Of a stretch of 64,000 nt of DNA, positions 11,881-60,299 are shown in pieces. The notes beneath the pieces are model-generated. The model was not told where the DNA came from, ran no database searches, and was given only the letters and a program-made list of their open reading frames with translations. Made by a program: the position numbers and the translations under genes. Every line of letters starts with the position of its first letter. Position 1 is the first letter of the stretch. The stretch lies in the NCBI GenBank assembly GCA_964016885.1, contig OZ024741.1, positions 37,820,001-37,884,000 of the forward strand, given 5' to 3'. Source of the stretch: Eledone cirrhosa (taxonomy: Eukaryota).

Positions 11881-12593
11881 GTATGTATGTATGTATGTAT
11901 GTATGTATGTATGTATGTATGTATGTATGTATGTATGTATGTGTATATATATATATATATATATGTATGTATATGTATGTATGTTTATGTATGTATGTAT
12001 ATCTGTATATATATATATATGCATATGTATGTATGTATGTATGTATGTATGTATGTATGTATGTATGTATGTATGTATGTATGTATATGTATATATATAT
12101 ATATATATGTATATATATCTGTATATATATATATATATAGATATATGTATATGTATATGTATGTATGTATATGTATGTATGTATATGTATGTATATGTAT
12201 GTATGTATGTATATATATGTATGTATATGTATGTATGTATATGTATGTATCTATATGTATGTATATATATCTGTATATATATATATATATATATATATGT
12301 ATGTATATGTATGTATATATATGTATGTATATATATCTGTATATATATATATATATATATGTATGTATATGTATGTATATGTATGTATATGTATGTTTGT
12401 ATATGTATGTTTGTATATATATATATGTGTGTATATTTATGTATATGTATATATATATATGTATATATCTATATGAATATATGTATCTATATATATATAT
12501 AACGAAGGAAATGTGGTAAGGAACCAGGTGGACCATAACGCACCAAAGTACTCAATACTTGGGGTAGTAGAGTGGGTAATAGGAACCAGTAAG

Positions 12594-12687
12594 ACCCCGA
12601 CGGCTGAGCTCAAGCCGTTTCGACGGCTAATTCTGGACTAAATGAAAATTTATCCTGGTATTTAAATAGCCGATCTTCTCAAGGGGT
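12594..12687 (-). ncRNA. Type I hammerhead ribozyme, U3-A8 core variant
   Basis: Reverse complement of the 13197-13290 motif. Confidence 0.75.
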
Positions 12688-13196
12688 AATTCCATATATG
12701 GTCAAAGTGATTGTCAAAAGTCAGTAGTAATTCTGTGATTGCAAATTAGTAGGGGAGATGGTGGCTAAACCTGCCAGTAGGAGAAAGAGGAGGTGGAGTA
12801 GACCCAATCAAGCGTTGGTAGTGCCAGCTACAGCTGGGCATGAGGTCAAAGAAGATACTGGGGAGGGGGAGGGGGAGGAAGTCGGAACGGTAGGTAGAAC
12901 AATGAGGGGTAAAAATATATATGAAAGAAAAAATACTGAGAGTGAAGAAAAGCGAATAAGTGTAAAGAAAAAAGTAAAGCAAGTTCTACGACCTAGGTCT
13001 CTAGCTATTGTTAGGCTAGATAAATAAATAAATAAAGAAAGAAAGAAGTAAAGAAAGAAATAAAGAAATAACGAAATAAGTAAATGAACCCTCCCTTTTT
13101 CTCCTACTGGCAGGTTTAGCCACCATCTCCCCTACTAATTTGCAATCACAGAATTACTACTGACTTTTGACAATCACTTTGACCATATATGGAATT

Positions 13197-13290
13197 ACCC
13201 CTTGAGAAGATCGGCTATTTAAATACCAGGATAAATTTTCATTTAGTCCAGAATTAGCCGTCGAAACGGCTTGAGCTCAGCCGTCGGGGT
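13197..13290 (+). ncRNA. Type I hammerhead ribozyme, U3-A8 core variant
   Basis: Stem I ACCCC/GGGGT; core TTGAGAA; stem II GA(T)CGGCTA...TAGCCGTC; GAAA; stem III CGGCT-tgagctc-AGCCG; cleavage triplet GTC at 13283-13285. Confidence 0.78.
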
Positions 13291-13924
13291 CTTACTGGTT
13301 CCTATATATATATATATATATATATATATATATATATATATATATATATATATATATATATATATATGTGTATATGTATATATGTATGGATGTATATATA
13401 TATATGTATATATATGTGTATATATGTATATATATGTATATATATGTATATATATATATATATATATATGTATATGTATATTAACTAGACATGTGTGAAC
13501 CTCTCTATGTACATCTTAATTTTTTTAATCAGCATAATATTTAATTAGACATTAGTTTGGAACACACACACACACACACACACACACACACACACAGACG
13601 CGTGCGCACACGATTTTACTTGATCCTATCCATTCCAGTACATAATTGTTTTCAAGTCTGGTACAGATATCGATCTCTGGTTCATATTATATCGATCTCT
13701 GTAAATTATAGATCATATAATCAACAACTTACACACTCACAGACACACACACACATAGATACACATACATATACATACACGCACAGATACATACACACAC
13801 ACATATATATATATATATATATATATATATATATATATATATACACACACACACATAGACACACACACACAGATACACGCACACACATATATATACACAC
13901 ACATGTATATATATATACACACAC

Positions 13925-56690: not shown

Positions 56691-56866
56691 CATTTCTTCA
56701 TTGTTGATTTAGACGGTTTTTTGCTGGTATTTCTTGCGTCATTATAAGCCTGCCTTATTGTCCCTATCTTAACTATAAGAAAGGAGTGCGGGACTGCGTC
56801 CAGAATATATTTTTTTACTCCGTTTGTAAAATAAGTTAGATTACTTTGACTAAATAATGAATGAAT

Positions 56867-58539
56867 TGTAGTGACCTACATTCCGCGGGCTCACATACAT
56901 TCTCTGTGCGTGATTTGGCTCAGCTCAGCCAATCAGCGCCAGTAGAAGAGGATGTATCCCTACGCGTTCTGAGGGAGAAATAGCCCGCAAAGATTTGAGG
57001 ACGCTATCACTTCCAGCTAGACCTTGCTGAGGTAAACACCACTTGTTCTTTTGCTCCGCCAGCACAAACAATATGTAACGACACAACAATTTTACTACGG
57101 AATTGGCTAAACGCCTCAGCCAGTCGACCGTATTTTCTCTTGTAATCTTAATTGATTTGTTTTATTTCTCTTGGCATGCTAGCTCAACCTTTGTTAATAA
57201 ATAATGTAAAAACAAGCTAAAGTCGTGGTCGATATTCCTATCATATCTTTCTACCAAACTGGTGGTTCCTCGTGGCAACATTACAACTCTCTAACAAATA
57301 CTTCTCCGCTAAATTGGTGACAACAACACTACCAAATTGGTGACCCTCGACGATTAAGTATGAAAACGCAGCCTATTTGAATTCGCCATTCGTTTTAATG
57401 GCTAGGTGGAGTGGCTTAACATTTGGAGTGTTCGAATCGGGTAGCTAGACTCACTTAGCGTAAGTCCATAAAATTCATAATATTCCATTTGTTGAAGCAC
57501 GCGGCCTGCACAATATTTCTGTCATAACTTTCATGGTAACACTAGTAACTCACGTATACAGACGAACAGAAAAAACCAACACAAAAAAAAATTAATTAAA
57601 AAGAAAAGGATTTCTCTGGATGTAGAATTTTGCTTTCGGCGTTCTGTTGAAATTACAAATGGAAACTCAGAAATTTTGTTTTCCCGCGTACAGCTTGTCT
57701 TCTCCAATCCCAGCCATCTGGTTGGCTGCATCGTGCCACATGACGGCTTCTTCATCACAGACACATTTTTCAATCGGCCATCTTGGATTTTCTTGCCGAA
57801 TAATTTTTTTTTATTATTCAAATTTTCTTTAGAATATTTTAGAAAAAAAGAAAAAATTAGCAGTATTTCAAAAACTTTTCGCCACGAGGAAATTTCAAAA
57901 CGGCTACCACCAAGTACCAGCCATCAGCAGCAACACATGGCTAACTATTAACCAACACCAGGGAACGACTTGTAACTTTACCGACGCAACCACCATACCT
58001 TCTGTCTCGTTACCACAAGCACTCGAGAAATTAAGACATTAGTTTTCTCACCATTATGGCGTCGGACGTGGCTGCCATGTTGGTGACGCTAGGTTCTTCA
58101 ACGCTCGACTTCTACTCTACAGAAGATTCATTGTGACTTTGCTTTAACAACAACTCTACTAGCTCCCTAGTAAGAGCGTTCCCAAAGAAAAAAGAAGCGA
58201 AACTTTTGGTTAAAAGAAAAGAAACAATTCTTTCTTTCTTCCTTTTTTTTTCAGGCATTTATTTTGGACATTTATTTTTTTTAAAACTGTATTATATGAA
58301 AATTCATTTCTCTCTATCATTGTATATGTGACCGCACGCACACATTTTCTTTGCTGTATTACATGCCTGCATATATACACACACCAACATGTTGTTGTCT
58401 ATAGTATATGATCTTCAAGCGTCGTAATATTCTGCGAGATCCCTTTTCACCTTTTGGAGGTACCAAAACATGCTATCTTTCTACCAAACTGGCAACCTTA
58501 CCAACTTCTAAACATAACTCCCTGCTAAAGAATATTACA
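56867..58539 (+). mobile_element. LTR retrotransposon remnant (LTR, PBS and degenerate interior)
   Basis: Starts TGTAGTG; contains CCAAT and AATAAA; PBS-like TGGTGACCCTCGACG at 57338 resembles the complement of the tRNA-Trp 3' end. ATCTTTCTACCAAACTGG recurs near 58476, and the segment ends in TTACA. Confidence 0.55.
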
Positions 58540-59131
58540 TAATTTATGTACTAAATTTCGTAACTCTAGATTAAATATATGTTATTGCTTATTTAAAGAT
58601 TCACTTCTTTAAAATTTTCAAATGTCAACACTTCCGGTTTATATCGTAACACTTATGAAAACATCGCATTTATTTCCGTCGCTAATTTTCTCCTAATGCA
58701 GTTTATATATAATATCGTCTTTCTTAAATGTATCATGGATCACTTTACTGATTGCAGAAGAGAGTGTAACATAGACTTCGTTCAATTTCTGTGCATATTG
58801 TTAATTACCCGAAGGGTGGTTTTTCTGCTAGTATATTTAAAGATATTTGTTCATTTTGGAGTTCAACAATACAACGTGTTGGACATCGTGCGATTTCGGC
58901 AACGAAATGGTTTGTATACTTTATGATTAATATCTTCTTTTCTTCTTAAGAATTGTCCCCTGATAAAATAATACGTTCTTCCAATATTGGTTGTTCCAAT
59001 AATTTGAAATAGCTAATATTGTTTCATAATTTTAGAAACCATGGTAGGGAGATGATTATATGAGTTAGACTAACTTATTTTGGCATAAGTTTAATATATA
59101 TATATATATATATATATATATATATATATAT

Positions 59132-60299
59132 AACGAAGGAAGTGTGGTAAGGAACCAGGTGGATCATAACGCACCAGAGTACTCAATACTTTGGGTAGTA
59201 GAGTGTGTAATAGGAAAATATTCAAGACCCCGACGGCAGAGCTCAAGCCGTTTCGACGGCTATTTCTGGACTAAATTAAATTTTTAGCGTGGTAGTAAAT
59301 AGCCGAATTTTTCAAGGGGTAATTCCTTATATGGGCGTGCGATAATGATCCATTTCAGAAGATTGTAGTTGTCAAAAGAATTGGTCAAAATTTCTTGTAA
59401 ACACAATTAAATATTTCATGGCGGTGGGTGGGGGTGGGTGGCTGAACTTGCCTGTAGAACAATGAGGGAGTGGGTTAAGCCGGTCAAGCGTTGAAAGTGA
59501 ATTCTATACAGCAAATTCTAAGGAGTGTGGAGTAATTAGGCTAGTTAGAAAGCAGGTGAAAAAAGAATTCTAGTGGAATCTGAGAGTGGGAAGTTATAAA
59601 ATTAAAAAATTAAAAAGTTAAAAAATTAAAATTAAAAGATTAAAAAATAATAATAAAAAATAAATAAAAAATAATATAAAAAAATTAAATAATAAAAAAT
59701 AATAAAAACTCGAGTCTAAAACAGCTGCTATATTTTTAGCTGGTATTGCGTTTTCGGCCAATGCTATATAGAATTTACGGGCGTGTGGGTACTGAGGGAC
59801 AAAAGCCCGATGAGCTGCCTCAGGGTAAGCGAAATATTATTTTTTATTTATTATTTTTTAATTTTTTAATTTTATTTATTAACTTTTTAATTTTTTAATT
59901 TTAATTTATTAACTTTTTAATTTTTTATTTTATAACTTCCACTCTCAGATTCCTCTAGAATTCTTTTTTCACCTGCTTTCTAACTAGCCTAATTACTCCA
60001 CACTTCTTAGAATTTGCTGTATAGAATTCCCTTTCAACGCTTGACCGGCTTAACCCCCTCCCTCATTGTTCTGGAGGCAAGTTCAGCCACCCACCCAACG
60101 CCATGAAAGATTTAATTGTGTTTACAAGAAATTTTGACCAATCCTTTTCAGAAATGCATCATTATCGCACGCACATATAAGGTATTCCTGCTTGAAAAGT
60201 TCGGCTATTTACTACCACGCTAAAAATCTAATTTAGTCCAGAAATAGCCGTCGAAACGGCTTGAGCTCTGCCGTCGGGGCTTTGAACATTTTCCTATTA
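59132..60299. mobile_element. Family P1 copy 4, long diverged inverted arms
   Basis: Same 78-nt tail (59132-59209); arms near 59208-59700 and 59835-60299; U3-A8 hammerheads near 59227-59320 (minus) and 60187-60280 (plus). Confidence 0.82.

Follow-up and report, generated by a model that had tools for sequence, protein, structure and literature searches.

In the 64,000-nt stretch of Eledone cirrhosa DNA analysed here (assembly GCA_964016885.1, contig OZ024741.1, positions 37,820,001 to 37,884,000, forward strand; hereafter the window), palindromic insertions of a family termed P1 lie next to (TA)n repeats. These fold-backs are 5′-truncated, head-to-head products of an autonomous Penelope-like element (PLE) that encodes a reverse transcriptase (RT) and a GIY-YIG-type endonuclease and carries Hydra-like motifs, because the same sequence forms the pseudo-long terminal repeat (pLTR) and the tail of the complete element found at locus L071. 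In regard to the mechanism, it is likely that the fold-backs are made when both nicked (TA)n strands prime RT on one RNA of this element, at two fixed sites 80 nt apart. Genome-wide counts given below are pattern matches in the 3.0-Gb assembly.

Three forward copies in the window start with AACGAAGGAA at 12501, 14989 and 59132, each adjoined by (TA)n, and their inverted duplicates finish in ...TTCCTAT at 13305, 15185 and 60297, just as a first-pass annotation of this DNA had described. Positions in the element (d) are counted inward, beginning with the first A of AACGAAGGAA; the element's sense strand is the reverse complement, and d increases toward the 5′ end of the RNA. The arm lengths given in that annotation (208, 59 and about 480 bp) keep their pattern and are corrected to 212, 59 and about 490 bp, while the apparent spacer of the first copy proved to be merely its longer arm (12501-13089). 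The unpaired tail of 78 nt was confirmed as well. Each outer end stops at a UAU triplet (TAT in DNA) common to the element and the (TA)n target and, since this triplet is shared with the target at both ends, the start sites are 80 nt apart when compared like for like. A reversed fourth copy (20550-20666) obeys the same layout, with its tail shortened to 44 nt by a 34-nt internal deletion.

Across the genome, exact matches number 25,180 for the tail start and 17,482 for the TTCCTAT end followed by (TA), with zero matches for both reversed patterns. The proposed targeting of (TA)n holds, as at least 6 nt of alternating TA lie beside the tail start in 81 of 89 tail-anchored loci, against a background of 7% of the T positions in the window. 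An inverted arm is present nearby in 56 of the 89 loci and ends exactly at tail position 79 (d79) in 44 of them; most of the remaining 12 are alignments stopping early in diverged copies. In 40 loci anchored on the region common to both arms, we found 12 single arms and 29 head-to-head pairs, all 29 with exactly one tail. Endpoints in the larger sample are thus not random, as the first-pass annotation required. In end-anchored samples, 89 of 111 pairs are clean one-of-each, and the other 22, judged by eye, include one pair with two tails and none with two site-2 ends. The rule is also kept in 17 of 18 long insertions, picked from lists of long-arm and RT-motif loci, and either arm of a fold-back can be the longer one. 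A tail at one end only is already in print for PLEs.

In raw Illumina reads from three further runs that carry the same species label, both ends continue into (TA)n and strand-flip joints are present at the fold. Therefore, at the level of the family rather than of the window loci, the palindromes are not an assembly artefact. A miniature inverted-repeat transposable element (MITE) or other DDE transposon with terminal inverted repeats would share the inverted repeats within TA flanks; it would not share the asymmetric ends, with 78 extra nt at one of them, the variable inner junctions or the linkage to an RT open reading frame (ORF), and such an origin, or an artefact of assembly, can practically be dismissed.

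The complete insertion at L071 runs from (TA)n through a tail with an inverted pLTR, a 3′ part of the ORF with pLTR and tail, the full ORF and a pLTR ending in TTCCTAT to (TA)n. It is the autonomous partner with RT and GIY-YIG that the first-pass annotation proposed to look for among elements sharing the tail, and it bears out the Penelope-like origin. The full ORF has 785 open codons (718 aa from the first ATG) and contains YRDD. The RT-motif pattern has 772 matches in the genome, and the element period is about 3,543 bp; the frame is fully open in five of 30 RT-motif loci, four of them in one tandem array. Out of 8,000 candidates that were scored, 2,058 are homologs of the element protein. 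Its model (pLDDT 93.5) is best matched in Foldseek by telomerase RTs (TERT), and in a wide structure search telomerase ties with the RT of a diversity-generating retroelement at Z 15.9, a comparison that does not bear on the endonuclease domain. For the latter, VIY..YIG lies at residues 590-608, and residues about 600-626 align to the stretch of a homolog that passes the cut-off of Pfam PF01541 (GIY-YIG).

Compared with section 11 of PMC8557442, the ORF carries the Hydra-clade motifs RWR37 (for RWK), DKT117, CNCPDRSIC572, CNLC670 and CKH698. Features of endonuclease-positive (EN+) PLEs are present as well: partial-tandem pLTRs, an inverted 5′-truncated copy, a one-ended tail, a predicted hammerhead motif in the pLTR, and RT with a GIY-YIG-type endonuclease. 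On the other hand, the hammerhead has a U3-A8 core and a large loop II in place of the canonical CUGAnGA form, and the period exceeds the length of generally under 3 kb. The element is therefore named Hydra-like and not a Hydra member, a likeness that refers to motifs and anatomy and not to placement in a tree. A tandem array at L221-L223 (G000 C1, 91.473-91.494 Mb) contains four intact ORFs and is followed, at the inversion junction, by a 55-nt unit of the 3′ part of the ORF repeated about 65 times, possibly a result of reiterative copying. The TA-rich stretches that hold P1 copies also contain, close to them, other PLE-like open frames, recognised by eye or by weak similarity (L036, L038, L044, L051, L059, L077 and L081).

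In the minimum free energy (MFE) fold, the pLTR forms a type I hammerhead with stem I ACCCC/GGGGU, the core UUGAnAA, GAAA, and GUC before the cut; stem II bears a 37-nt loop and stem III has 5-6 bp. Position 7 varies (G, U, A), as expected of a free position. The predicted cut lies 20 nt upstream of the TTCCTAT end, in support of the earlier estimate of about 20 nt, and the site-2 end lies 3 nt beyond the base of the extended stem I. With its full stem III, the predicted ribozyme would be capable of folding as a monomer. Its U3-A8 core escaped a scan for the canonical CUGAnGA form. Canonical or near-canonical CUGAnGA...GAAA cores do occur in other short or fold-back insertions of the window, at 15253-15410 (-), 24615-25030, 40772 (-), 42891 (-) and 59807 (+), and these insertions probably belong to other PLE families; the core at 59807 sits in the centre of copy 3, between its approximate inner ends.

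The inner breakpoint, formerly thought to vary freely, is strongly clustered. Inner junctions could be parsed in 67 of the 111 pairs, and among the resulting 134 arm ends 112 fall at d132-143, 17 before and 5 beyond. This stop, 132-143 nt from the tail end and within loop II of the U3-A8 hammerhead, accounts for about 90% of arms, and single arms stop at d134-143 too. Genome patterns give 41,649 arms ahead of the stop (d107-135), compared with 3,442 that pass it (d126-151) and 3,561 at d165-193, with 14,761 junctions having both arms at the major stop. The inner junctions were made anew, 58 of the 67 being distinct. This major stop is found at TTAGTC/TCAGT, with TATTTAAA about 29 nt upstream. 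The former resembles an initiator. Drosophila Penelope is known to have a promoter inside its pLTR, and one has been suggested for rotifer PLEs. We lean towards the major stop being a transcription start and not a structural or protein roadblock, although of all parts of the mechanism this is the one held with least confidence.

Read depth also falls at the major stop, where reads end at AATT sites, probably those of the enzyme used in restriction site-associated DNA (RAD) sequencing, and it was not used as evidence. A 3′ splice site at this position was rejected, as the 67 junctions share no upstream exon, and so was palindrome collapse, which gives neither a sharp edge nor single-arm stops. 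A second stop near position 821, suspected from a few long arms, was not upheld in the 18 long insertions. At L152 (849-1569; G000 C1, near 27.01 Mb), a fold-back contains a three-unit tandem with a period of 257 nt, in which each unit begins at d142 and the first two reach into the ORF, 115 nt beyond the tail end; the structure resembles the outcome of template jumps that started from one and the same RNA 5′ end, or else a seed of the retrozyme kind.

A minor class of fold-backs ends at the predicted ribozyme cut. In the genome, 279 junctions pivot at the predicted hammerhead cut, and a single one pivots in the interval just above it (both arms d100 or more). The comparison intervals d91-95, just below, and d119-122 hold 94 and 79 junctions, mostly microhomology joints, the patterns being imperfectly matched. 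In the first 50 listed junctions of the cut class, inspected by eye, both arms end at d97-99 in 45 and one arm reaches d101 in five; of the 45, 1-3 untemplated A/T are present in 16 and the joint is flush in 15, where a 2-nt microhomology could have been used. One tail and TA flanks were found in 19 of 20 inspected loci of this class.

The two arms of an insertion are coupled. Among 69 insertions with an arm past d165, both arms pass it in 28, while 4.5% would be expected if the arms were independent. Mixed pairs of a cut and a long arm number 1 of 70 and 0 of 89, where roughly 12% each would be expected with independent templates, and in 57 of 66 pairs both arms belong to one subfamily, compared with a mean of 21 after shuffling. 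Most simply, one RNA would serve as template for both cDNAs, and its 5′ end would be where they finish. A rival view is that the same element uses the same two start sites and that the major stop is a roadblock on a long RNA, set by the loop II hairpin or by a bound protein, as at the telomerase template boundary. Loop II can indeed form a hairpin, the ends are spread over d132-143, and the stop shows poly-A stutters as well as re-priming. A chance stall should strike the arms independently, yet they pass together; furthermore, the 5′ half of loop II varies between subfamilies while the stop and its YYAGTY motif stay constant, and arm counts plateau directly after the stop. We regard such a roadblock as unlikely.

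Concordant arms could also follow from one priming only, if the second arm were made by self-priming or fold-back synthesis, as PMC3846280 reads it, or if the palindrome were rearranged later; some junctions do show microhomology or local switches of template, which would be in keeping with it. This leaves unaccounted for the exact d79 end of the second arm on the TAT shared with the target, the finding that either arm can be longer, and the fact that joints at the cut are blunt and carry untemplated A/T; single arms stop at d134-143 also. A single priming thus seems very unlikely. Even less probable is a self-replicating family of the non-autonomous, retrozyme-like kind that the first-pass annotation proposed. 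Short copies outnumber RT-bearing ones by about 20 to 1, and there is the one short tandem at L152. Against such a family stand the 58 distinct junctions among 67, which recur across subfamilies, the continuity of the sequence with the autonomous pLTR and tail, the lack of the 5′ half of the ribozyme in about 90% of arms, and the absence of tandem monomers with full hammerheads outside the full-length array.

According to the favoured mechanism of two primings on one RNA, the element protein would bind near the hammerhead and the tail and nick both target strands. The 3′ ends of the target would each pair with a UAU triplet, at sites 1 and 2, and both cDNAs would be extended toward the RNA 5′ end, after which their ends would be joined end to end through 0-4 nt of microhomology or with a few untemplated bases. 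The template's 5′ end would likely set the length of the insertion. Transcription starting in loop II would lead to the common hairpins of 190-200 bp, hammerhead cutting to the class of roughly 120 bp (about 2%), and read-through transcripts of tandem copies, which would be either cut or copied long, to long and full-length insertions. If the major stop is a transcription start, promoter-born transcripts would lack half of the ribozyme and stay uncut, and this would account for the crossing of the cut site by most arms. The identity of the element, the fixed ends, the pairing rule and the clustered and coupled inner ends are observed here. Nicking and extension of both strands and internal initiation are taken from published in vitro work (PMC11167929), and we infer the single RNA, the UAU pairing, the run-off and the end joining. 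Two priming events at fixed RNA positions, as first proposed for this DNA, are thus supported, the idea having already been published for a lizard PLE in the same source. As a tentative extension, one RNA may be copied twice from the fixed UAU sites, the 279 cut-site hairpins may be in vivo evidence of PLE hammerhead cleavage and of retrotransposition of the cut RNA, and the dominant short class may be a strong-stop-like product of a promoter inside the ribozyme, only read-through transcripts being cuttable.

Several points weigh against the favoured mechanism. Transcription start and cleavage are deduced from DNA ends alone, and the major stop is smeared over 12 nt where the cut class is sharp; a cap-like extra C is present in 4 of 4 informative ends, a small number. 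Two cDNAs on one RNA would overlap by about 60 nt, requiring strand displacement. Gene conversion between the arms, or source loci active at different times, could also give the coupling. In regard to the ribozyme, no pairs changed on both sides were found among 18 sequences of 90% identity, Rfam had no match in the window or the pLTR, stem II has a mismatch or bulge, and one lineage carries C3-A8. The ORF and its profile had no direct sequence match in Pfam or the Protein Data Bank. The pattern counts differ in degeneracy and miss decayed copies, and the loci were sampled from a single chromosome, in its first part. Finally, two loci are exceptions to the pairing rule, L012 with two tails and L230 with two site-2 ends; the flanks of L230 are mirror images too, suggesting conversion or a carried-over flank.

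The P1 family bears on how PLE inverted repeats are formed and on what their hammerheads do, the function of the ribozyme being called unclear in PMC8557442. It supplies exact, countable ends, namely the one-of-each rule, the coupled 5′ ends and the cut-site class, and such end-counting is applicable to any PLE-rich assembly. By implication, many short "MITE-like" hairpins of PLE-rich genomes are PLE insertion products. If the mechanism is true, the family represents a fossil record of Penelope retrotransposition.

The features of the P1 copies are collected in Table 1. Besides these, the window contains further palindromic elements by or around (TA)n (16866-17257, 33236-34013, 37597-37888, 37163-37398 and 21273-21398) and, by eye, long open frames resembling those of long interspersed nuclear elements at 945-6341 (+), 8595-11336 (+) and 27815-29389 (-). 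A family of about 200 nt, resembling short interspersed nuclear elements, has more than a dozen copies (14825, 20130, 22838, 30703, 44217, 47781, 61201, 62449 and others), and a minisatellite at 47266-49266 consists of 34 copies of a 38-bp unit with 97% identity.

Table 1. Coordinates of P1 copies and their parts in the window
Feature	Position	Strand	Remark
Copy 1, tail; RNA segment bounded by proposed start sites 1 (tail end) and 2	12501..12578	-	Runs on into ORF frame in L071
Copy 1, tail-bearing arm; putative cDNA from site 1, ~600 nt pLTR	12501..13089	-	92.6% identity to autonomous element (L071), 608 columns
Copy 1, site-2 arm; TTCCTAT end at (TA)n	13089..13305	+	97.7% identity to autonomous element (L071), 99.5% to other arm
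Predicted type I hammerhead, U3-A8 core, large loop II	13191..13302	+	MFE fold a three-way junction; core UUGAGAA 13202-13208; predicted cut after 13285
Mirror copy of predicted hammerhead in copy 1	12582-12693	-	
Major inner stop, d143-132; candidate transcription start at initiator-like ATTTAGTC, within loop II of the hammerhead	13241..13252	+	112/134 arm ends
Copy 2, tail-bearing arm, finishing at d139	14989..15127	-	
Copy 2, site-2 arm; typical short fold-back without 5′ half of hammerhead	15127..15185	+	
Copy 4, site-2 arm; diverged subfamily	20550..20604	-	
Copy 4, tail-bearing arm; tail with 34-nt deletion	20605..20666	+	
Fifth copy, old tail-only remnant	51482..51560	-	85% identity over 74 nt
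Copy 3, tail-bearing arm of an older, diverged subfamily; approximate at inner end	59132..59705	-	
Copy 3, site-2 arm, its hammerhead decayed; approximate at inner end	59835..60297	+	

In regard to known systems, a parallel outside PLEs is L1 twin priming, in which both target strands prime on one RNA and an inversion results. There, the second site is variable and the segments do not overlap, whereas in the P1 family the sites are fixed and the copies overlap. For PLEs, an inverted copy, a one-sided tail, targeting of (TA)n and a pair of RT start sites have already been published. To this published anatomy, the P1 family adds a long tail and a variant ribozyme and, more importantly, a class of insertions at the cut site and the coupling of the ends, none of which was found in the literature searched. 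Likewise, neither a published count of one-of-each start-site use nor any description of insertions that stop where a PLE hammerhead cuts was found in that literature, which did not extend to subscription papers and the supplements of PMC11167929, and the available parts of PMC13282606 and PMC9977147 yielded nothing on element anatomy.

The EN+ PLEs of the Hydra clade (PMC8557442, Craig et al. 2021) resemble the element in their single ORF, C-terminal endonuclease and RWK/DKT/CxCx5C/CxxC/CxH motifs (here RWR for RWK), as well as in the (TA)n target, partial tandems, inverted 5′-truncated copy, one-ended tail and pLTR hammerhead. Their tail is 30-40 nt, compared with 78-80 nt here, their unit is under 3 kb, compared with about 3.5 kb, and their listed ribozymes have the canonical CUGAnGA core in contrast to the U3-A8 core, 37-nt loop II and 5-6 bp stem III described above. 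In Poseidon_Ac of the lizard Anolis (PMC11167929, Frangieh et al. 2024), two internal RT start sites bound the tail and both strands were extended in vitro. The AT-rich target, the cutting and extension of both strands, the hammerhead just upstream and uncut RNA as the main template all match what is observed or proposed here. Its start sites showed no strand preference, whereas one site each is used per insertion here, and no reads ended at its ribozyme cut, while a class of P1 insertions ends at the predicted one. Hammerheads of the Schistosoma PLE Cercyon (PMC4209133, Cervera and de la Pena 2014) share a covariant U3-A8 core, the G10.1-C11.1 pair and the occurrence of nearby opposite-strand pairs; they are of the minimal, dimer type, while the one described here, with its full stem III, is predicted to be capable of acting as a monomer. 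Finally, non-LTR retrozymes (PMC7229834; bioRxiv 10.64898/2026.07.22.740005) are also short, non-coding, hammerhead-linked and PLE-related, but they consist of tandem monomers with a whole ribozyme in each, whereas P1 fold-backs are inverted pairs of half-ribozymes that are made anew.

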